DNA from: Paraspadella gotoi
Lineage: Eukaryota > Animalia > Chaetognatha
Length of the DNA: 13,233 nucleotides
Assembly: GCA_051294375.1 (NCBI GenBank)
Contig: JBJCIZ010000496.1
Location: 1 to 13,233 of the forward strand
Direction of reading: 5' to 3'
Position numbers and translations under genes: made by a program. The notes under the pieces were generated by a model. The model saw only the letters and a list, made by a program, of their open reading frames with translations, was not told where the DNA came from and ran no database searches. Positions 1 to 13,233 of the stretch are shown one piece after another. Positions within the stretch are counted from its first letter, which is position 1; each line of letters starts with the position of its first letter.

Positions 1-906
1 GTTGCAGATAAAAAAGTTTTTATCAAAATAATTTACATTCAATTATAGATGATAATTTGCTTCCTTTAGTGATATCAGATTTGTACTGTGACTCTTTATT
101 AAAGTGTGCTTACTTTTTTGTAGATACTTCCTGTCCAGACTGCTTTAAGGGAAAAAAATTTAGTAACAATCATAACAACTGTAGTCGGGAATTACAATAT
201 GTTCAAACTGCCTATAAGCATTAAGCATGTTAAGTGTGAGGACTGAGGACAATGTTTGGGGCATGAAAAACCCTTAAGCCTAGTTACAAGCTCAGTACCC
301 GTTCTATGGCTACGAGAGGGTGTTAAAAAAGATTGACTGATTTACAAAATTGGAAACTTCAGATTATTTTTCCAGACTTTTTTTCTTAATATGTTAATAT
401 TTGTTTTATTGTTATTATATCGGCGGTGGCGAACGGCGCCGTAGGGGGAGACGGCGAAACGTTCGTCAGCTGAGCAATGTTCTCCACCTTGAATTCCGTA
501 TAAAATATTATAACTTTTCTCTTACAACTCTCTCTCCCTCTCTGTCTCTCTTCATCAAAATGTTTGGCAAAATTTTTGTAAATTCATATTGATCTGAAAA
601 AAGACTAAAAAAAGATATGGATAAAAAAATATACAGATGGATGGATGGACATACATCGATAGTTTTGAATAACATAATAATTAAATGTTCTGACATGATC
701 TCAGCGACTTACCGACAAGATTTTTGGGTAGGACCGATGGACCCCTTAGCTTTGAACAATAATTACTGAGTAAATAGAGAGATTCATTTAAAATTTTGTA
801 GGTATGTGGTGTGATTGAAGTAGATGATTAAGCTGTAAATCAAGTTTCAATGGAATTATCCAAGTGGAAATAAATTTCAAATAGAAAAAATCCGAAAAAA
901 AGAATG

Positions 907-3804: not shown

Positions 3805-3829
3805 NNNNNNNNNNNNNNNNNNNNNNNNN
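3805..3829. other. Assembly gap (25 N)
   Basis: Run of 25 N. Sequence character changes from gene-dense to non-coding across it. Confidence 0.99.
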
Positions 3830-3975
3830 ATTCAGCTCACAAGATTAGTTCTTTATGAGGTCAAAGCATTTCTCACACAATCGGAGCTTCACTATTTAAG
3901 CTCCTCAGTTCGTTTTATAATAAATTCCCGGAAATCTTTAAAACGGTAAGCTAAATATCCGCAATAGTCCTGCAT
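3830..3975 (-). CDS. Accessory ORF G2, 5' fragment running into the assembly gap; probable paralog of G1
   Basis: U-rich tract plus CATCATTAG (3992), ATG at 3975. Reads MQDYCGYLAYRFKDFREFIIKRTEELK / (I)VKLRLCEKCFDLIK with one A restored, versus G1 FKRRKTDELEGRLPGSVKRCIELMQ. Confidence 0.5.
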
Positions 3976-4041
3976 TATGTTCGAGCAATTCCTAATGATG
4001 AAGCATAATAAATAAACAAAGTAAGTTTAAAATTGAGATAT

Positions 4042-4391
4042 CTATGACAGGATTTTAATCTCTTCCTGTCTTTCCTCGATGAGTTCCTCAATCATCTTGT
4101 AGATTTCATTATAAGTCTCGGCCTTTTCCTTTTTATGAAATTTAAGCATCACGGCCGTTTTTCTCCATCCTACTGCATTACGAACGTCTTCTTCTGCAGC
4201 CCTTTTTAGTTTCAATCTGTAATCCTCGGGAAGTTCTTGAACCATTCCGGATGCCGTTTGATTTTGGCTTTCTGTTCTCTTACGTTGAGGTTTCTTCCGA
4301 AATGTTTATTCTCGATCTTCTCTTTGTTTTGTAAAAGATGCTCCCACTTTGCAGGAATCGTGCGCCGCGCGCCGCCCACCGGATCGGACAT
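4042..4391 (-). CDS. Accessory ORF F2 (about 116 aa; one missing G near 4242), paralog of F1
   Basis: GCTAAT branch-like motif plus TCTTACCAG|TTCAAAATG. The track ORFs 4212-4475 and 4042-4245 join as ...KIKRHPEW|VQELPED..., matching PDWVQ in F1. Confidence 0.75.
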
Positions 4392-4496
4392 TTTGAACTG
4401 GTAAGAATTAGCTTGAAAATAAATTTGATCAAGTAATCGTAACTTCAAGACGATAAATTGATATTTGTTAGCCAATTTGAAGTTTTTGTTATAATT

Positions 4497-4877
4497 TCAC
4501 ATTACAGCAAATCCAACAATTTCAACAGTTTCTTTTGGAGAGATTTTGTCTTTCACTGATTCCAGACTCTCGTGATTGAAAATGCAGCCTCTGCTCAGGT
4601 AAATTTCTTTCCACCTTTCTAATGTCGGAAACTCTTCCTCCAATGCTTTTATTTTTTCGGCAAATTCTCTTACATTTGCTGTGGGATTTTTTGCTCTTTC
4701 CTTGGCGATGGATTCCCGGATTTTCTTGATCTTTGAAGCATGGTCCTGCATTAGTTCGATGCATCTTTTGACGGAACCCGGAAGTCTTCCCTCCAATTCG
4801 TCTGTCTTTCTTCGTTTGAAGGCGCAAAGCTCCAGGTGCTCCCTCGAGTAGATCGTAGATATTAATCCGTTTTGCAT
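4497..4877 (-). CDS. Accessory ORF G1, intact, 126 aa, charged and probably helical; function unknown
   Basis: ATCTGTTTAG acceptor (4891), then ATG at 4877. MQNGLISTIYSREHLELCAFKRRKTDELEGR...VGFAVM-TGA is uninterrupted. Confidence 0.75.
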   Translation of the reverse strand: MQNGLISTIYSREHLELCAFKRRKTDELEGRLPGSVKRCIELMQDHASKIKKIRESIAKERAKNPTANVREFAEKIKALEEEFPTLERWKEIYLSRGCIFNHESLESVKDKISPKETVEIVGFAVM

Positions 4878-4955
4878 TCTAATTCGAAAACTAAACAGAT
4901 ATAGATAATTATCACACAAGTTAATCTACATTATATTGAACGTAATTTATACACT

Positions 4956-5297
4956 TCATTCATGTAAATTTTTTAGAATAGTCTCCTGGTTTTCAATACG
5001 TTCCTGCATCATTTTGATTATGGCTTCGAAAATCTTGGATCTTTTTGGCTTTTCCCTTTTCAGGATCTCCGCCGTTTTCATCCAATCCTTCGTGAGACGA
5101 ATCGTCTTTTCGGCTTCGGCTTCCGGACCCCTGCCCTCGCCCAGGAGGATCCTCTGTACCCAATCAGGTTTATAAGAAATATTTGCTTCTGCTTCACGAA
5201 GCATTACGTCCAAGATCTTCTAATTTATATGTTCGCTTTCTTTCTGGAGTTTTAAACTTCTCCAGTCATCCCATAACCACACGACTTTGTTGGCCAT
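4956..5297 (-). CDS. Accessory ORF F1 (113 codons, one in-frame TAG at 5220-5222), paralog of F2
   Basis: TTTATTTCAG|TTCAG acceptor (5346 or 5341), then AAAATG at 5297. Reads MANKVVWLWDDWRSLKLQKESEHIN*KILDVMLREAEANISYKPDWVQR...KNLHE-TGA. The ungapped match to F2 spans the internal stop. Confidence 0.75.
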
Positions 5298-5381
5298 TTT
5301 CGTCGGGAGAATTAAAATAAGTTCGTTCAATAAGAAAGGTCTGAACTGAAATAAATTTTGTTTATATTAAACAAGGATTAA

Positions 5382-5585
5382 TTAAGAGTTTTTTGTCGAA
5401 TTCTTCATCCGAACTTTTGGTCTTTTGCTTAAGGATAGTGTCTTAACGACCATCTTTTTGCTTTTCAAAAGAATCAAAGACCGTTTCCGCGCTTGGTCTT
5501 CTGGATCGGAAAATGAAACCTTGTGAATTTCATCATAACAAATGCCAAATTTGCCATACATATAACCATTAAATGAGCCATTTTC
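5382..5585 (-). CDS. Accessory ORF or exon E (about 67 codons): either a separate small gene with ATG at 5581 or the last exon of D2
   Basis: CTGAT branch-like motif plus TTTGTTCCATTCATTCAG (5586), followed by GAAAATG. The phase-0 frame ENGSFNGYMYGKFGICYDEIHKVSFSDPEDQARKR... is open to TAA at 5382-5384. Confidence 0.4.
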   Translation of the reverse strand, partial: ENGSFNGYMYGKFGICYDEIHKVSFSDPEDQARKRSLILLKSKKMVVKTLSLSKRPKVRMKNSTKNS

Positions 5586-5616
5586 CTGAATGAATGGAAC
5601 AAATAAATATCAGAAT

Positions 5617-5990
5617 TCAATATTTCAATAATTTGCAAGTCGATTGATAAATATTTGATGAGGCAACTTTAATATTATGATTTTCTTTCGCAATAAGCTC
5701 GTCACTCAGTTCGCAGTTGATCACGGAGAACAAAATCCCGAATGACAGAGTAGATTCTTCCAAAGCTTCTCGCTGCATGTCGGCGTATTTTTCCATTGAT
5801 TCTGTAGGAATACGGCCCATGGGAAGACTTTGTTATCGTCTTTGTGCCACTGCCTCGTTCAACTTCTTTTCTGTTCGTCTTTCCATCGTCCATATTCGAT
5901 CACGAATTCGTCTTTATAGTGCGTCGGGATGTGCTCGAGGAGGATTCGCATGTGGAGCTCTCCTTCGATTTCAACGTAATCTCCAGACAT
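5617..5990 (-). CDS. Accessory ORF D2 (about 124 aa; one frameshift and one in-frame TAA)
   Basis: CCTAAT branch-like motif plus TTGTTTACTTTCAG (6009), then AAAATG. Reads MSGDYVEIEGELHMRILLEHIPTHYKDEFVIEYGRWKDEQK / KKLNEAVAQRR*QSLPMGRIPTESMEKYADMQREALEE...KLLKY-TGA. Confidence 0.6.
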
Positions 5991-6023
5991 TTTAATATAA
6001 ATATCAAACTGAAAGTAAACAAA

Positions 6024-6303
6024 TTAGGCGATTCGAGCGTAAATAAATCCAATTGATGACATAATATCACTTTTCAGCTCTATCTCGCAAGTCATAATGA
6101 TTTCCTTTAGTTTCTCCCTTCTTTCTCCATAATAAATTGTATTAAGAATTCTTTGCTTGTCTCTGACAGATTCAAAGATTCCGCTTGATCCATCTTGATC
6201 ATCGTCTCGTCGTACCAACGATTGTATCTGTCGTAGAACTCGGCCAAATGTTCCATTGGAATAGATCAATCATCATATTGAAGAGAACTCGACGAGATGA
6301 CAT
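6024..6303 (-). CDS. Accessory ORF D1, paralog of D2, with about two frameshifts
   Basis: After TTTCTTTCGTAG (6321): MSSRRVLFNMMID / SIPMEHLAEFYDRYNRWYDETMIKMDQAESL / ...YYGERREKLKEIIMTCEIELKSDIMSSIGFIYARIA-TAA. Similarity to D2 supports the repaired frame. The start codon is uncertain. Confidence 0.55.
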
Positions 6304-6573
6304 CCTTCGTCAGACGTTCTCTACGAAAGAAATGCGGTACTTCATATAAAGGTTCAAGTTGCTAAATAAAAGTGTTATTATTATTTGTTGATTTTTAAAT
6401 CATCACCAGTGTGTGGTTGGATCGTCGCTTCCAATTGAGTTATTCTCCGCGTTAGGTAAGTGATAATTTTCTCGTTACTGAATCGAAGGTGAGTATGAAA
6501 TGCACTGAGATTAATTTGAACGAAAATAGACAAAATTTGATTATTGATAAAAATATCGAGTTATCTTTGTTCA

Positions 6574-6889
6574 TTAAACTACAACGGAGATCTGCAATAG
6601 TTTTCCGCTGACATAATGTGGGTGGAATAATAAGGGATGGAGGTTCAATTCTCCTCCTTGGACAAGGGTGGCGCCGAATGACGTCGAGGTGCGGACATTT
6701 CCACCTCCAACGGACGTGAGTCTTGATGACGACGCCTTATGTAAATTTAGATTCAGTTGAGGCGAGTAGTGTTAATTTATTTACACTTTACTTCTTACTT
6801 AAATTTATTTAACTCACCTTTTTCTCGATTTCTTCGAGACGGTATATGTTCGGAGCGGCTATTTCATTTGAATTCGATCGTCGTGACAT
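6574..6889 (-). CDS. Accessory ORF C, spliced (exon 6889-6818, intron 6817-6736, exon from 6735); 3' structure uncertain
   Basis: Acceptor-like TTTTTAG (6933) or CCATAG (6901) precedes the ATG. MSRRSNSNEIAAPNIYRLEEIEKK ends at a perfect AAG|GTGAGT donor, followed by an AT-rich 82-nt intron and a GC-richer exon open to TAA at 6574-6576. A further candidate exon at 6504-6407 could extend it or join it to ORF D1. Confidence 0.5.
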
Positions 6890-6945
6890 CGTAGCAGCTT
6901 CTATGGTCGAGGATCGAAACTTTATATTCTACCTAAAAATTATTT

Positions 6946-7272
6946 ATCACAACAAAGGACGTTTGACTGATTTTAGAAAATCACTTTATTACATCAAGAA
7001 GTGACTGTTATCACCTTATATCAAAGAATTCGACTGATACAATTATAGTTTTATTAACTATCGGATCACTACACATTGAAGAAGTTTGACTATTACAATG
7101 ACGGATCTATTTTTATTGGATCACTACACGTTGAAGAAGCTTGACTGTCATAATAACAGTTCTATTGTTATCGGATCACTACACATTGAAGAAGCTTGAC
7201 TGTTACAATAACAGTTAAATTCGATAATTTCGTTGTTCGTCGGATCACTGCACATTGAAGAAGTTTGACTGT
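6946..7272. repeat. About 55-bp tandem repeat (core GGATCACTACACATTGAAGAAGYTTGACT), 4 good copies plus about 3 decayed, in the 3' flank of ORF B
   Basis: Copies start at 7062, 7117, 7172 and 7241. Degenerate tcac...gactg copies occur near 6946, 6981 and 7011. Confidence 0.9.
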
Positions 7273-7279
7273 TTCCTGG

Positions 7280-8834
7280 CTAATATGGGAGCCACCCCAG
7301 CCTCTGCTTAGCCGGAATGCGTGGTCGGTGGCGGTCCTCGTCCCTCAGGCGTCTGCGAGAGAGAGACTCGCGAAGGTCTCTCATGACCAGCTCGACGTTG
7401 CGAGTGATCTCGCGTGCGTCCTGCGATTCGCGCCTTGTGGTCCTCGCGCGAGGGTCCGATTCCCATAAGACCTCCTAAAAATAGTATGTGTTTACTGGCA
7501 TTTCTCTATAATAAATTTTTATTGTAATTCAATTTTTACCACTTCTTCGTCTTCGTAGACGTTCAGCGGTGGGTAAAAGGGTCGGCTTCTGATTGGAGTG
7601 CTTGTTGCTGGGGGCAGAAATAGTTCTCGAGGAGGACTTCCCGTAGACGACGGCGGCCGGATCGGGCTCACTACTCGTGGGCGTAGTGGTTGAGTTGCGG
7701 TGGCGCGACCAACCGTTGACGAGGGTGGGGCTGTGACGCGGCCCATTGGAGGAACCACACGCACGTGATCGCGGCCCATTGGTGGAGAGATTGAAGGCAC
7801 TACGTGGTCGCGGCTCATTGAAGGAACCACGCGCACGCGACCGCGGCCTACTAGAGATGGAGAGATTGACGAGGACGGCACCGCAACGCGGCCGCATTGA
7901 AGGAACCACACGCACGCGACCGCGGCCCACTAGAGACGTAGAGATTGACGAGGAAGGCGCCGCAACGCGGCCCATTGAAGGAACCACGCGCACGCGACCG
8001 CGACCCACTGGAGGCGGAGAGATTGACAAGGATGGCGCCGCAACGCGGCCCATTGAAGGAACCACACCGCACGCGACCGCGGCCCACTGGAGGCGGAGAG
8101 ATTGACGAGGATGGCACCGCAACGCGGCCCATTGAAGGAACCACACGCACGCGACCGCGGCCCACTGGAGGCGGAGAGATTGACGAGGATGGCACCGCAA
8201 CGCGGCCCATTGAAGGAACCACACGCACGCGACGCGCCCACTAGAGACGAGAGATTGGCGAGGATGGCACCGCAACGCGGCCCATTGAAGGAACCACACG
8301 CACGCGACGCGGCCCACTGGAGGTGGAGAGATTGACGAGGATGGCGCCGCAACGCGGCCCATTGGAGGAACCACACGCACGCGACCGCGGCCCACTGGAG
8401 GCGGAGAGATTGACGGCGGAGGGGCGGCGAGTCCTCTCCCGGTGGAGCCGGTTCCGGCGTAGATGGCGCCGTATGAGCGCGGCCCATTGAAGGCGGGAAA
8501 GTCGGGACGTCGACTCCTGGTGGCGCCGGTTCTCCTGGAAGGGAGATGGTTCGCTGGGGTTGACGTCGAGCAGGTCGTCGCCGCCATCGCCCTCGCTCGC
8601 TTGGCGGCTTCCTCCTGGTTTTAATATTTTGAAATATTTGTCAACGATTTTCATTTATTAATATATGGACATGTTTCGACTCTTTATTTCGAGTACTTCA
8701 ATGAAGCCGAAAGGATTAGCACAATGGCTATCAAAATAACATTATGCTTTATAAATAAGTATATCTAATGTTTATAGCTCTCGTTCTCTTACTAGAAATA
8801 TTTTGTAGTCGCGGGTGGCCTGCGCGTCCGACAT
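7280..8834 (-). CDS. Accessory ORF B: three-exon Arg/Ser/Pro-rich repeat protein (exons 8834-8793, 8614-7540, 7474-7280)
   Basis: CCACCATG start. Intron 1 GTAAGA...CCAG (8792-8615, 178 nt) and intron 2 GTAAAA...TTTTTAG (7539-7475, 65 nt) are both phase 0 and AT-rich against GC-rich exons. Joins read MSDAQATRDYKIFL|EEAAKRARAMAATT... and ...YEDEEV|EVLWESDPRAR...RIPAKQRLGWLPY-TAG. Small indels break the frame inside the repeat. Confidence 0.75.
7738..8420. repeat. GC-rich 78-bp tandem repeat, about 9 copies, coding MGRVA(A/V)PSSSISPPPVGRGRVRVVPS on the minus strand
   Basis: The cccattg anchor recurs at 7971, 8049, 8128, 8206, 8281 and 8358 (spacings 78, 79, 78, 75, 77), with more diverged copies down to about 7740. 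Confidence 0.97.
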
Positions 8835-8990
8835 GGTGGAATGTTTTTTTTTTTTTTTTGTTTTCTTTTTTGTATTAAGGAAATTGCCCTGGGAAAAAGT
8901 ATCGAACGGAAATAATCAGTAAATTAAACGGATCGATGAAATTATCTTGAACATTGTAATTTGATAGTGTATTCTCTATTTAAAGTTCTT

Positions 8991-9569
8991 TCATATTTTC
9001 CATTTCATGGATTTTTGCGAGAAGGGCGCGATTCCTTTTGTCCTTTTTAATCTTTCGATTTCCTCTCGTAATTTCTCTTTCAATCTTCTTTCTTGCTCGC
9101 ACTGGATATCCTCTCGAAGACGAGCGACTTCTTTCTTCCAAGTTTGAAAGCGTTTTCTTGCTTCTCTTTTCTTACGTTGTTGACGAAGAAATTCGTGTTT
9201 CCTCTCTTTATCCCATTTCTCTTGTAATTCAGCGAAACATTCCTCGCTGGTCGACTTTGTTAAAAATAATTACTTCGTCTTCCTCTGATGACGAAGAGGA
9301 AGATGACGGTGCCCATTTCGATACTTCTAAAATCTCGATCACGTCCTCTGGTTTTACTTCCGCAACTGATGCGGGACTTGATGGTGGAGCAGCTTCCGAT
9401 TCCGGCTGCGACGAAAATGTTGGGGAAGCTGGTGGTGACGACCTTTCTGGTGAAGCAGATGACGAGGATCTTTTTCAGAGGGGTCTTCGACTTCCCTGTG
9501 AGCATGTTGAAACTCGTCAGGGCTTGACAATTCTTCCTCAATTACGATAGTGTCTATGCAATCCGTCAT
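8991..9569 (-). CDS. Accessory ORF A: acidic, Ser/Pro-rich N-half plus charged, probably coiled-coil C-half (about 185-190 aa, two frame breaks)
   Basis: GCCATG start 23 nt after CTCTTTTTCTTTACTCAG. Reads MTDCIDTIVIEEELSSPDEF..., then after a shift in an A-run near 9472 SSSASPERSSPPASPTFSSQPESEAAPP...SSSEEDE, then after a break at 9255-9273 STSEECFAELQEKWDKERKHEFLRQQRKKREARKRFQTWKKEVARLREDIQCEQERRLKEKLREEIERLKR...MKWKI-TGA. Confidence 0.65.
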
Positions 9570-9592
9570 GGCTGAGCGTTAAACAAGTGGCT

Positions 9593-9612
9593 CTGAGTAA
9601 AGAAAAAGAGTA
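9593..9612 (-). promoter_or_regulatory. Strong 3' splice acceptor at the head of the accessory cassette
   Basis: Polypyrimidine tract CTCTTTTTCTTTACT followed by CAG, 23 nt before the ORF A start. This is the position of an env-type subgenomic acceptor after pol. Confidence 0.6.
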
Positions 9613-10109
9613 ACGGTAATGTTTGATACATGTCATAAAGACTTTAATATTGACAGACTAGTGCAATTTTATTCAAATAATTATTCGAATTTCGATGTAA
9701 ACATCATTCGAAAGTTTGATGCATTTTGCGCACTTTTTATAAACAACGGAACAATTGAATATGAGTCCGAATGATGAAATAATACTAACTAACTTAATAA
9801 GTCCCAGACTCGTCTTAACGAATTCTCTTTAAGACAATAGCTTGCTGATAATAACTCGTTATTTGAATTCGCTTGAGTGACTTTTCAGTAAATAAATGAC
9901 CAAGTACTATCCTGGTCAAAAAATTAAATAATAGCAATTTGACTTTAAATAAGGTTTCTGATCAATTCTTTAAAATAATGATCGGGTTGTGTGATGAATT
10001 ATAACATCCAACAATTAGTGGTGAACAAATATTCAAGAGATATTTTCAAATTTGTTTACAGTAATATAAATGGTTTTTTCTCAATTATAGACAAAGCGAA
10101 AAAGATGTT

Positions 10110-11200
10110 TCAAAGGTTCACCTTTTTTCTAATCAATTCCAGTTTGATTAAAGTTTTTACATGCCGACGAATCTCCTTCTTGTTCGGAGTTTTCACGATC
10201 GCTTCGCGTTTGTGAATGTCTTCTCCACTAGTTTTGAAATTCGACCAACTCTCCAAATGTCTCGAGGTGTGTTCTCTTCCTCGATTAGTACGATATCTCC
10301 TGCTTTGAGGTCATCGGAAGAAGTTGTCCATTTCTTTCGACAGCGAAGAGTCGTGAGGTACTCTTGTTTCCAACGGATCCAGAATCTGTCTGCCGTATCG
10401 CGGACGATTTTCCAAGATGCTCGTAAAGTGTCGCCAACTGTAGGAGTGTAAGGAAGGAGAGTTAAAGCTGTAGAGGCATGTAAATAAGGGTATAAAAAAT
10501 TTTCAGGACTCAATGCTATGATTTCGTTCGGATTTGCTGGAGCCTGAGTAATTGGTCTTCTGTTTAATATAGCAGAGATTTCACATAAAATAGTAACGAA
10601 AGTATCAAGGTCAGGTTCCTTGGGTAAGGAAGTTGTTATATGCTTTTTTGTACTTTTTACGAGACGCTCCCATACTCCCCCCCAATGAGGGGTGTGCGGA
10701 GGGCCGAAGTCCCACCTGATATCGTTCGAGGCGATGAACTCTGTAAACTTTTCATCTTGACGAATTGTTTTCAGTTGCCTTTTTAATTCGTTGTCGATGC
10801 CTCTGAAATTTGTTCCATTATCCGAAACAAGTCGCTCCAAACCTGGGAAATGTGAGCGGAACCTTATCAATGCTGATATAACTGACATACTTGACATGTC
10901 TTTTAAAACTTCGAATACTACGGCTCTTGTAGTCATGCAAGTAAGAAGTAGAACATGTTTATTATTGTAACTTTCCGCGTTTTTCTTTTGTTGGGACCGA
11001 GACATCGCTCCCGTGGTTTTTAAAGGGATGGCTGTTCACTCGAATTCGGGGGAGGTCGCTTTTTGTGGGGGTTTGGGTCTTGTGTGCCTTTTGGCATTGT
11101 AGACATTTCCTATGAGTTATCCCGTTTGCTCGTCTCCTTATAGCAAATTTCTTTTAGGAGTGAAGTGTGCGAGAACCGCCCGCATGTTTCAATGTCATGG
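10110..11200 (-). CDS. Integrase: HHCC remnant, DDE core (clean ORF 10193-11005) and DUF5641-type C-terminus
   Basis: H....HAG near 11180-11205, CLQCQK, DLP..RV...PF.TTG.D just upstream of 11005, TCMTTRAVVFE, SDNGTNF, PHWGGVWERLVKSTK, LNRRPI, FWIRWKQEYLTTL, GDIVLI, WRVGRI. After a frameshift near 10232 the frame reads SGEDIHKREAIVKTPNKKEIRRHVKTLIKLELIRKKVNL with TGA at 10110-10112, the expected end of this domain. Confidence 0.93.
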
Positions 11201-11729
11201 AATGCTCTAATTATAGAAATTTACTTTTTCATCATTTTTTGTTAAGACCAGGGTGTGTTTGTGTTTCGGATGATATCTTTTTGGCTTTGCCAAGTCTGGC
11301 CCGTGCTCTATACTTTCTCGATAATGACGTGGACCTTTGTTAGCGAAATTCTTTGTTGAAATTTTAGTTTGAGTCTCTTTTTGTTCGGAGACAAAATACC
11401 ATTTTAATAATTCTTTGATTTCTTTTCAATTGAGATCGTGAATAGCTTTATTAATTTTTCCTCGCGTGGTTTGTTTCGGGTAAGTAAAATGTTTTAACTG
11501 TTGTAGCCTATTTCCCTTCTTTTTTGTGTTAAAATCCAGTTCTTAGTATTTTAGACGGAGGAGGTGTTGGTACGCAAGTGCATTGCGGGCTACATTCTCG
11601 GGGGTGGTTGCAGTACTCGTCGGATCGGCGGCCAAATGGACTTCTTGTTGGTATCTTCGTGAGCGTTTGGAAGTCTCCTTTCTGGTAGGATTTGATGGGT
11701 ATTTTTGACGGTTCGGCCTTGCTTTTGGT

Positions 11730-12430
11730 TGTGAAGCCAGCGGGACTCTGTGGAAGAATGGTGCATTTACTTGTCATTCGCGTCGGGCCCTAGAGGTGAA
11801 GCGGCGGGGATTTTCCTTTCTTGCGCGGTGCCGCTCTGTATGGAGTAATTTCGTTAGTTGTTTTGAGGTCTATGTGTCGAAGGTGTTTAATCTTTTAGTA
11901 TATTTTATGCATTTAATACTGTATTCGTCTGTGGCATCTTGTTTGCTAGAAATTTTTCCAGACTCTCTATTTATATCTTGAGTGAGCTGCAGTCTTGCTG
12001 CATTTTAATTCTAACGAGGCATATCTCTTCAGGTGATCCTCTTGTTTCTGGTGATCATGTTCTTTGCTTTGCAATGGAACACATGGAGATTTTCGCTCGT
12101 AATAAGGACATAACATTTCGTCTTATTTGTTATCTTTTTTTAAATATGCGACGGGGGTTGCCGTAACGTAGACGATTGCATCTGCAAAGAATAATTATTG
12201 CGTCTTGCAAGTTTAGGCCCGATATGGATGTCCATGAGGAAATGCCATCTTTTCAGCTTTGTCCATCTCTCGTCTCCATTTGGTCAAATTTTGAAAGTAT
12301 TCTGATTTCTGTCCAGTTGTTGCTCATTTTGTTGCTTTTTGGAAATGAACCTTCCTTTTAATATGTATGGTGACACCCAGTGATCATGCGCTTGCTACTA
12401 GTTTCAAAAATTCGGCTGGTATTGCTCCTT
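11730..12430 (-). pseudogene. Pao 'Peptidase_A17' / RNase H region, heavily indel-disrupted
   Basis: Remnants in the expected order: EFLKLVASA.D.LG..SPYI, IIFADA...YG..VAYL, LLRAK.S.V.P, MPRLEL.AA, TD..TVL, NPA...SR, P.WL. Read by eye with frame repair. Confidence 0.8.
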
Positions 12431-12910
12431 TTTTGCGCGTTTTCGTTTATAGGACAAAATAATCTTTCTCAGTATTGAACCTTCCTAAATTCTTACTTTT
12501 TGGTTTCTGTCGCCATCTTGGGCTTCGGTGCGGGAAGCATTTCGGCATTTTCGGGTCATGCGAGTTCGTTCAGTTTCCTGAGATCGATTGGAGCACGTCA
12601 GTCTGAGATAGGATTCGTCTTTGAGGCCCGGGAGTGCTGAACTCTTTAAACTTGCAGTTCAAGCTCGCGCTTGAGTGCTGTCGTGAGTCTATTCTCAGCG
12701 TTTGTGCTTCCTGGGGGTATTGAGTGAGTCCATAATGTCATGTAAGTTGGAGGAAAATAGAAGAAGCTTAGTGGGACTTGGTCCTTTTTCTGTTTCATGT
12801 GATATTTAATGACCGTTTGCGACAGCCGGCGCTACCAGAGCCGCCAAAATCGTGACATGTAGATTGGTGGGTCTCAGCTTTGTTGCTTTAGTCGGCTTAC
12901 CAAAAAACTC

Positions 12911-13228
12911 TTAAAGGCACGCTCGATCGGCGGGGTTCGTTTCTATGTTGATGAAAGGCCTTTTTATGTCCCGCAGGACGAGTGTTCTTTTTTTCCTCGA
13001 ACCTCGATTTACGCCCAGTAAAGGAGTCAGGTTGTCAGGGCCAGCTATTAAATGCTGGTTTAAAAATGTACCTCGGGTTTTCGAGGCTGCGTCCTGACAA
13101 ATTCGGAATTTTCCGGGTTTGTCGGGGCGCGTGACAATGTGCAATGGAGTATAATATTCTGGCAATTCGCCATTTAAATTTTCAATTTCTACTTTACTTG
13201 AGAAACCGACCTCCATGCATTCGCGCAT
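12911..13228 (-). CDS. Reverse transcriptase N-terminal part (BEL/Pao type); continues in broken frames to about 12600
   Basis: YYTPLHIV..PDKPGKFRICQDAASK..G.FLN..L..GPD.L..L and DIK..F..I...P.DR match the BEL/Pao RT pattern Y.PH..V......TK.R.VFDAS......SLN..L..GP.L and DI.K.F.QI...DR. Confidence 0.9.
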   Translation of the reverse strand: MRECMEVGFSSKVEIENLNGELPEYYTPLHIVTRPDKPGKFRICQDAASKTRGTFLNQHLIAGPDNLTPLLGVNRGSRKKRTLVLRDIKRPFINIETNPADRACL

Positions 13229-13233
13229 TGTTT

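Follow-up and report, generated by a model that had tools for sequence, protein, structure and literature searches.

A candidate leader-spliced gene array behind a decayed Bel/Pao pol

How might about ten short genes on one strand, each starting just behind a splice-acceptor-like AG of its own, be expressed? Such an array, here called the cassette, occupies 5.7 kb of the minus strand after a pol gene in the 13,233-nt stretch of DNA that we analyzed (the window), and most of its genes are broken. Judged by its sequence, the upstream neighbor of the cassette is a decayed Bel/Pao pol.

10134 to 13233, minus strand: decayed Bel/Pao pol (Pfam rve and DUF5641; tblastn matches to P0003-P0008)
12896 to 13228 and 10229 to 10987, minus strand: the parts of pol, an RT fragment and the integrase with DUF5641, broken between
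3805 to 3829, no strand: assembly gap (N) at which the element's 3′ end is lost (from the sequence)

The pol shows the Bel/Pao hallmark, a Pao-type RT and an integrase with DUF5641. Pfam E values were 1.8e-18 for DUF5641 and 2.1e-5 for rve, the latter under its curated cutoff. By tblastn the gene is collinear with P0003 (RT at 13228-12896, a weak middle match at 12479-11976 and IN at 10987-10229), and the PR-RT-RH-IN order holds within the window, PR falling outside it. Its decay is seen in the 23 to 26 stops per frame that separate RT from IN. There are 406 homologs, with Pao domain sets in those listed, and pol is a separate ORF of 1320 to 1430 aa in the nearest relatives. In the integrase tree its clade is without any named member, and the ten closest integrases are all metagenome proteins; the main-text passages of PMC3118150 and PMC6238403 gave no named Bel/Pao superfamily for this clade. 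The relatives from locus scans are all distant (79 metagenome loci at 30 to 40%, 1 viral and 3 genome), and neither the cassette blocks nor the window DNA matched 80 relative loci. No LTR was identified in the window; the element's 5′ end lies outside it and the 3′ end falls at the N gap, and all results describe a single decayed copy. The CpG observed/expected ratio of the flank is 0.86. The sole public run with window sequence (share 0.47), X1, is guessed to be RNA and consists of contigs, not reads, and two further runs, X2 and X3, placed no sequence on the window; one of these (record 7, 9437-10277) joins the integrase end to gene A. We infer that the cassette is part of the element. Its components are as follows.

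9734 to 9741, minus strand: TATA-like motif upstream of gene A, a possible internal promoter (pattern match only; 10 such patterns on the minus strand and 5 on the plus strand)
8980 to 9594, minus strand: gene A, acceptor G at 9593, ATG at 9569, stop at 8982 (ORF and acceptor scan); frameshifted ORF with an acidic start and a charged helical end
7280 to 8890, minus strand: gene B/C, acceptor 8889, A-run leader, ATG 8834, donor 8792, last exon 7474-7280; array of 78-nt repeats with a Pro/Arg/Gly-rich 26-codon unit
6970 to 7290, minus strand: C/D1 spacer, 55-nt tandem repeats, CAGTC and GTGAT motifs (motif and repeat scan)
6381 to 6934, minus strand: gene D1, acceptors 6933 and 6901, ATG 6889, donor 6406; perfect donor at 6817 and putative internal acceptors at 6735 and 6505
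6024 to 6322, minus strand: gene D2, acceptor 6321, ATG 6303, broken ORF, paralog of E
5617 to 6010, minus strand: gene E, acceptor 6009, ATG 5990, broken ORF
5362 to 5587, minus strand: block F1, acceptor 5586, ATG 5581, frame uncertain; possibly an exon of E
4956 to 5347, minus strand: gene F2, paralog of G2, acceptor 5346, ATG 5297, 113 codons interrupted by one stop
4497 to 4892, minus strand: gene G1, acceptor 4891, ATG 4877, open 126-aa ORF
4042 to 4399, minus strand: gene G2, acceptor 4398, ATG 4391, one frameshift, paralog of F2
3892 to 3993, minus strand: block H, 27 codons from ATG 3975 behind acceptor 3992; a possible last exon of G2

An earlier note had proposed that nearly every one of these ORFs has its own acceptor just before the ATG. 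All 11 AGs and all 10 ATGs that it listed lie where it placed them, and each ATG is the first after its AG. The distance from stop to acceptor is 15 to 99 nt in eight of nine cases and 347 nt in one. Its claim that the short spacers contain no AATAAA was likewise borne out, the signal being absent from eight of nine; three copies (7117, 7055 and 6990) lie in the 347-nt C/D1 spacer. The U-rich tracts described at the acceptors emerged again from a blind segmentation in 40-nt windows (T ≥ 40%, G ≤ 15%) over 5831 nt. This gave 14 T-rich, G-poor runs covering 1362 nt (23% of the cassette), with the acceptors of the ten units falling in ten different runs; of the other four runs, two hold putative internal-intron acceptors and two are unexplained. 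The branch-like motifs, also in the earlier note, proved to be at chance level (3 of 10 versus 1.5 expected; with relaxed motifs, 6 of 10 versus 4.8), and branch-point enrichment at the acceptors was rejected. The 55-nt repeats were considered as structured or spliced-leader-like RNA and rejected (z of 0.09 to 0.99, no covariation, no Rfam match); an Rfam scan of the window gave no match.

Nine of the ten first ATGs have A at −3 versus 27 of 70 other minus-strand ATGs (Fisher p = 0.004, for a comparison set that leaves out the GC-rich repeat and with a p value not free of the earlier note's own selection), and none of five do after putative internal acceptors. AG is rarer from −40 to −3 before the acceptors (4 versus 10.8 expected; 27 of 5000 shuffles). 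Units made of an acceptor and an ATG with a purine at −3 numbered six on the minus strand, versus 1.2 ± 1.1 in block shuffles (0 of 300), and three on the plus strand, versus 2.9. Raw acceptor-like counts are without strand bias (9 versus 9), and three of the nine minus-strand ones lie in one tandem repeat. Among 355 AGs a heuristic ranked 9593 first and 5346, 6933 and 6901 only 48th to 52nd, its limits being apparent from acceptor 7475, which is used in X1 and ranks only 62nd.

Two pairs of units are paralogous, F2/G2 (z = 13.5) and D2/E (z = 6.0; 0 of 1000), and each copy has its own acceptor and ATG. Weak likenesses of E/G1 (7 of 1000), G2/H (13 of 1000) and G1/H (53 of 1000), among 21 pairs tested, were not counted as paralogy. 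In-depth homology searches, made for three cassette proteins, came back empty; those with G1 and F2, and with an F2/G2 profile against 1.84 billion proteins, gave no match. Pfam on seven cassette pieces returned just two matches, both below cutoff, and a repeat motif had no match in the viral contigs scanned. AlphaFold models were all helical (pLDDT of 53 for G1 and 75 for the F2 piece); F2 is a predicted helical hairpin, for which Foldseek gave no match at E ≤ 0.001 in viral or PDB libraries. We found no Env-like membrane glycoprotein after pol, the top 19-residue hydropathy being 1.27 in 11 pieces (gene C repeat part and D1 middle left out). Small, charged, helical and without an Env-like membrane segment, the cassette proteins are probably accessory factors.

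Splicing in the cassette is real: the X1 joints show this RNA to be a substrate of the cis spliceosome. The X1 results cover 8 of the 397 pieces, 6 of the 95 loose ends (none of these six in the cassette) and 14 joints. Two of the joints are GT-AG, and the cassette therefore also has ordinary short introns.

7475 to 7539, minus strand: 65-nt GT-AG intron inside gene C (X1 joint 7473/7539, depth 6.18, short side 26 letters)
6321 to 6406, minus strand: 86-nt GT-AG intron from D1 to the D2 acceptor (X1 joint 6321/6416, depth 3.36, short side 20)
10116 to 10124, minus strand: candidate donor AAG/GTGAAC (GT at 10121) just 3′ of pol, a possible leader donor (rank 6 of 300, heuristic)

Removal of the gene C intron keeps the frame (phase 0), and 64 codons follow. 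At joint 6321/6416, eight of the nine letters between match window positions 6408-6415, by our own reading of the joint table. Depth in X1 differs between pol and cassette, and X1 record 5 ends at 7102, just after the AATAAA at 7117; neither is taken as evidence here, the contigs being uninformative on ends or levels.

These splices bear on whether the layout is a by-product of decay, most of the AGs never having functioned in AT-rich spacers and the cassette not necessarily being the element's. Real DNA can give comparable raw unit counts: at least six units occurred at 2 of 16 control loci 3′ of other Bel/Pao integrases (53 at one), and five in the window's own 3.8-kb flank. The chance-level branch motifs, the lack of homologs for G1, F2 and the F2/G2 profile, and the absence of an LTR or second copy point the same way. 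Nonetheless, we consider such an origin extremely unlikely in view of the strictly alternating composition of the cassette, the paralogous units, the two real splices and the contig that ties gene A to the integrase.

The earlier note had also found no matching donor nearby. When 300 GTs were ranked (background median score −2.1), this held for eight of the ten acceptors, whose best GT 50 to 115 nt upstream scores −2.0 to −7.4 and ranks 73 to 248. It did not hold for 6321, which has donor 6406, or for 6933, which lies downstream of AAG/GTGATA at 7014 (rank 11). Internal donors 6817, 6406, 8792 and 7539 rank 1, 7, 12 and 35. The internal cis introns, the local use of 6321 and the candidate leader donors 10121 and 7014 had escaped the earlier note.

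Could the T-rich spacers then be short introns with weak donors, making the blocks exons of fewer genes or of one spliced polycistronic RNA? The 6406-6321 join is of this kind, and the T-rich stretches before most acceptors (about 55 to 110 nt, beginning near a GT) resemble the two introns seen. E-F1, F1-F2, G1-G2 and G2-H can be joined in frame, as can D1-D2 with a stop three codons on, and a 67-codon ATG-less frame opens at acceptor 5586, longer than the doubtful ORF from ATG 5581. However, on rough per-junction odds, chance alone would put five of seven joins in frame in about 25% of cases, the donors at those joins are poor, and for A, F2 and D2 no local GT would let the frame continue into that of the following block. 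The contrast in A at −3 between first ATGs and those after internal acceptors also argues against this possibility, as does X1 record 4, which keeps both spacers 5′ of 6009 and 5586; yet the putative 8792 intron is retained in X1 too. Stops lie 15, 31 and 16 to 36 nt 5′ of acceptors 6009, 5586 and 5346, distances too short for an intron after them. Exons of fewer genes, or of one spliced polycistronic RNA, are unlikely. Rather, the paralogous units, these stops and the weak local donors at eight of ten acceptors support the view that most blocks are genes in their own right, each preceded by an unpaired acceptor. This much of the earlier idea that one transcript is resolved into about ten mRNAs stands; neither the cis nor the trans route was itself observed.

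Each gene might instead have a small promoter, some "acceptors" being initiator elements. The initiator consensus is TCAGT-like, and YYAGTT occurs at 6009, 5346, 4891 and 4398, TCATTC overlaps 5586, and TCAGTC is found at 7037 and 6970. Excerpts of PMC4402516 describe internal env promoters in Tor3b and Tor4b. On the other hand, 9593 and 8889 have long pyrimidine tracts and no initiator motif, 6321 is used as an acceptor, initiator motif counts are hardly strand-biased (12 versus 8 and 9 versus 7), no TATA or downstream element is consistent by eye, and X1 contigs cross several sites. Separate promoters are therefore very unlikely.

The reading we prefer, at a probability of roughly 45%, is that the array is expressed through cis-splicing, in which a single short leader derived from the element can be joined to any of the acceptors. 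Each spliced RNA would carry a different gene first, that gene alone would be translated, and the unspliced RNA would be the genome. We infer that this leader exists; its source would be the 5′ LTR region, which lies outside the window, or else an internal promoter using donor 10121 or 7014, good unpaired donors upstream of each array half. A layout beyond that of shuffles, eight of ten acceptors without a local donor, each 5′ of a start codon, and the working of 6321 as an acceptor in X1 all favor it. Oikopleura and C. elegans are hosts that have spliced leaders. Excerpts report cis-splicing in an element of each: a donor near gag serves Tor3a env in Oikopleura (PMC4402516), and the cerv mRNA of Cer1 in C. 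elegans is assembled in cis from five exons (PMC10309623). Against a cis leader, the sole listed acceptor seen in use, 6321, took a local donor; most leader splicing would be expected at 9593, the strongest acceptor; and the absence of AATAAA from eight of nine spacers would leave upstream genes with 3′ tails of several kilobases. The 14 X1 joints listed include no leader-to-acceptor or spliced-leader junction, and the listed contigs pass unspliced through 9593, 6009, 5586, 4891 and 4398.

A leader could also be supplied in trans. The element would then be a virus-like Bel/Pao element with a ten-gene operon, grown by duplication of spacer, acceptor and ORF, and the host would add its spliced leader to each unpaired acceptor to give capped single-gene messages. 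The eight acceptors without a good local donor are in keeping with this, and the same-strand genes and short spacers without AATAAA have the form of an operon. TTTCAG is the C. elegans type of acceptor, and only 2 of the 10 acceptors end in it, so the array is not of that type. As described in excerpts of PMC12582326, operons are delimited at ≤300 bp, a limit that eight of the nine cassette spacers fit, and these spacers resemble the abutting Ciona and SL1-type operons; the same source reports acceptors used both in cis and in trans (20 to 95%) and SL addition inferred for retrotransposon transcripts. The all-metagenome neighbors of the integrase fit a little-studied host. However, none of the 6 of 95 X1 loose ends listed has an SL sequence, the genomic RNA would not survive trans-splicing at any of the ten sites, and 6321 is cis-spliced, contrary to the strong prevention of cis-splicing at operon-resolving acceptors in those excerpts. 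We regard the trans route as rather doubtful.

Bel/Pao elements are described as simple. An array of ten orphan genes, each with its own splice acceptor, would put this lineage on a par with lentiviruses in the complexity of its gene expression and would show a modular route of gene gain for an LTR element. It raises the question of how the genomic RNA, with its ten acceptors and several short introns, gets out of the nucleus unspliced. Were the leader the host's SL, this would be a retroelement operon, of which our literature searches found no description.

Complex retroviruses (HIV-1, HTLV-1) and the adenovirus major late unit use one leader and many suboptimal acceptors to make nested messages; they belong to another lineage, and a Rev-like factor and alternative poly(A) families are not established for the cassette. 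Belpaoviridae, with one to three genes in 4.2 to 10 kb, share with this locus the RT-RNase H-integrase order and the Pao-type DUF5641 end (PMC8742986). The locus differs in that gag, protease, LTRs and an Env-like protein are all missing from the 9.3 kb in view, which hold about ten additional genes; if the cassette is the element's, the roughly ten extra ORFs in 5.7 kb after pol depart from the family's gene number and size, the number lying far above that described. Cer1, likened here from its description in excerpts of PMC10309623, is an LTR element that makes, beside unspliced genomic RNA, an accessory mRNA (cerv) spliced in cis from several exons, and encodes a single accessory protein versus ten here. 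The Oikopleura elements Tor3a, Tor3b and Tor4b, in excerpts of PMC4402516, likewise express a gene downstream of pol, through an LTR leader splice or an internal promoter, but this is one env gene only. Planarian Burro/GYPSM1 and bdelloid Vesta/Juno are invertebrate LTR elements with accessory ORFs, and the excerpts of PMC6431247 and PMC5408684 do not describe an acceptor-per-gene array for them; Burro is gypsy-like and has most of its extra domains within a single polyprotein, and the rotifer Vesta/Juno have an enzymatic ORF3. Finally, the spliced-leader operons of tunicates, nematodes and flatworms in the excerpts of PMC12582326 share the same-strand genes, spacers under 300 nt and unpaired acceptors of the cassette, but they are made of host genes rather than mobile-element genes.

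The acceptor AGs that the earlier note had placed on the minus strand of the cassette, the 5.7-kb gene array that follows pol, are all present (9593, 8889, 6933 or 6901, 6321, 6009, 5586, 5346, 4891, 4398 and 3992), as are their ATGs, each the first one after its AG. A blind scan of the cassette for T-rich, G-poor runs, which ignored AG and ATG, returned 14 runs covering 1362 of 5831 nt; ten coincide with one listed unit each, two with putative internal acceptors, and the remaining two lack an explanation. An A at position -3 was found at 9 of 10 listed starts versus 27 of 70 ATGs outside the list (p = 0.004); none of the five first ATGs behind putative internal acceptors had it. AG was rarer upstream of the listed acceptors (4 versus 10.8 expected). 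Combined acceptor and start units numbered 6 on the minus strand versus 1.2 in block shuffles (0/300), with no excess on the plus strand; the acceptor scores are our own heuristics rather than a host splice model, and the way the sites were first chosen biases towards such outcomes. Raw counts of acceptor-like sites were unexceptional (9 versus 9 by strand), and at least 6 units occurred in 2 of 16 real-DNA control loci, the window's own flank giving 5. That the layout is a by-product of decay is the least probable reading considered here. AATAAA is missing from 8 of 9 spacers, in line with the earlier observation, and the branch-like motifs reported near the acceptors occur at chance level only. 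The leader of gene B has a long A run (minus strand) that lies between its acceptor and its ATG (window 8844-8871).

Upstream of the cassette lies a decayed Bel/Pao pol (13233 to ~10134, minus strand), with the following features:

13228-12896, minus strand: RT (tblastn, collinear with the Bel/Pao-like homologous proteins P0003-P0008)
11005-10196, minus strand: 270-aa ORF with DUF5641 and rve, the latter below its curated cutoff (Pfam)
10987-10229, minus strand: integrase (tblastn, collinear with P0003-P0008)

Between RT and integrase there are 23 to 26 stops per frame. From adjacency, strand and one contig spanning 10277-9437 in X1, a public sequencing run matched to the window, we infer the cassette to belong to the Bel/Pao element. 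No LTR was seen in the window, where an N gap (3829-3805) masks the 3′ end of the element; its 5′ end lies beyond the window. A tree was built from 49 integrase rows: the window and 48 of 120 listed hits, comprising the top ten, the named ones and a sample of the others. There the window integrase falls in a supported group numbering 10 (100/99), its other members being, without exception, unnamed metagenome proteins with identities of 52% or less. In its clade relatives, pol forms an ORF of its own, 1320-1430 aa long.

The Bel/Pao clade of P0003, P0006, P0007 and P0008, which has no named member in the tree, has pol as a separate ORF, and in P0003, P0006 and P0008 pol starts at a Met directly ahead of the protease motif; pol of this clade may therefore be expressed via splicing or its own start. 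X1 joints at window 10971-11218 lack GT-AG ends and leave out 96 and 105 nt; they probably reflect a diverged copy. Bel/Pao integrase matches at three loci (L081, L083 and L082) within records labelled Wolbachia and Dysgonomonas are probably host DNA in assemblies, or insertions.

X1 comprises contigs of one study, its RNA nature being only guessed; the display covered 8 of its 397 pieces and 6 of its 95 loose ends, with no loose end from the cassette. Among the 14 joints listed, two in the cassette are GT-AG, each in one contig. The first removes 7539-7475 (65 nt) in frame within gene C. The second connects donor 6406 with 6321, one of the listed acceptors (86 nt), with a short side of 20 letters and a depth of 3.36, in a contig that has one letter more than the window. 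From these joints it follows that splicing has acted on the minus strand of the cassette or a relative, and that 6321 functions as an acceptor, although paired with a local donor. The displayed contigs are unspliced across 9593, 6009, 5586, 4891 and 4398, and across a putative intron at 8792. No leader or spliced leader (SL) junction is among the listed joints, the six displayed loose ends lying outside the cassette.

The joint at 6321 is what ordinary local introns would produce. By heuristic score, the donors of internal introns rank 1, 7, 12 and 35 among 300 GTs, and the claim that the acceptors lack a matching donor nearby held for 8 of 10, whose best local GT comes in at ranks 73-248, roughly equal to or lower than the background median; it failed for 6321 and 6933. 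Local introns are an unlikely general explanation. Stops lie 15-36 nt upstream of three acceptors. F2 and G2 align over almost their full length (z 13.5), and the D2/E alignment spans 27 residues close to their starts (z 6.0; 0/1000 shuffles for both, breaks read as X), similarities which indicate that the array grew partly via joint copying of spacer, acceptor and ORF. Counting against wholly separate genes, in-frame local joins exist at 5 of 7 testable junctions, by our rough odds a ~25% chance event. F1 may well be an exon of E, and H of G2, so that the array holds eight to ten genes; of the proposed ten or so mRNAs from one transcript, the mostly separate genes stand, and the number is softened by F1 and H.

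Homolog searches detected no relatives of G1, F2 or an F2/G2 profile; other cassette pieces were screened solely against Pfam or fetched loci. Structural models of G1 and an F2 piece were all-helical and uninformative. No membrane segment appeared in any of the 11 cassette pieces examined, and the array is therefore not env. Gene C encodes a Pro/Arg/Gly-rich repeat from a 78-nt array, its frame broken in the window copy. This array (window 7736-8415; GC-rich, 7.8 copies, 92%) encodes a low-complexity Pro/Arg/Gly/Val repeat that is possibly RNA-binding.

As the acceptors are unpaired and lie ahead of start codons, a 5′ exon would have to be supplied from elsewhere. We favour an element-derived leader spliced in cis, at roughly 45%, because it needs no special host, because good unpaired donors are found at 10121 and 7014, and because the two LTR elements of SL-bearing hosts for which evidence was consulted use cis splicing, for Tor3a env in Oikopleura (PMC4402516) and for Cer1 cerv in C. 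elegans (PMC10309623). The two donors precede each half of the array; 7014 lies 23 nt past a TCAGTC motif, near three AATAAA. Host SL trans-splicing, a distinctly weaker candidate, suits the very short spacers and missing poly(A) signals; flatworm data include acceptors common to cis and trans splicing, though such shared use is lowest at operon-resolving sites (PMC12582326). Separate promoters for each gene are highly improbable. Near donor 7014, 55-nt tandem repeats (window 7032-7290, with degenerate copies on to ~6945) have a conserved 30-nt core and a variable spacer; they were rejected as structured RNA, being unstructured, and may be promoter elements. The cis leader, like any route to these acceptors, is an unproven candidate mechanism, and the evidence comes from a single decayed copy plus a single public run.

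Elsewhere in the window, 922-1194 and 1687-1830 contain a high-copy host repeat (22-nt minisatellite and GA microsatellite; summed X1 contig depth >5000). At 430-480 (plus strand), a stem followed by GAAAC-GTTC-GTC resembles a Penelope-like element's hammerhead end in degenerate form; Rfam gave no match there. A GTAAGT donor and TTGCAG/TTTCAG acceptors 70-100 nt apart (1575-1300, minus strand) are possibly remnants of a host gene.

In the ICTV profile, Belpaoviridae have one to three genes in 4.2-10 kb (PMC8742986). Extra ORFs are described for rotifer (PMC5408684), planarian (PMC6431247) and Drosophila MDG1-group elements (bioRxiv 10.1101/2025.03.14.642691). In mainly non-subscription main texts, excluding Repbase, we found neither an acceptor array spanning multiple genes in any Bel/Pao element nor a retroelement operon resolved by SL. 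The architecture is real and unusual, and the cassette-bearing LTR element looks organised like a complex retrovirus.
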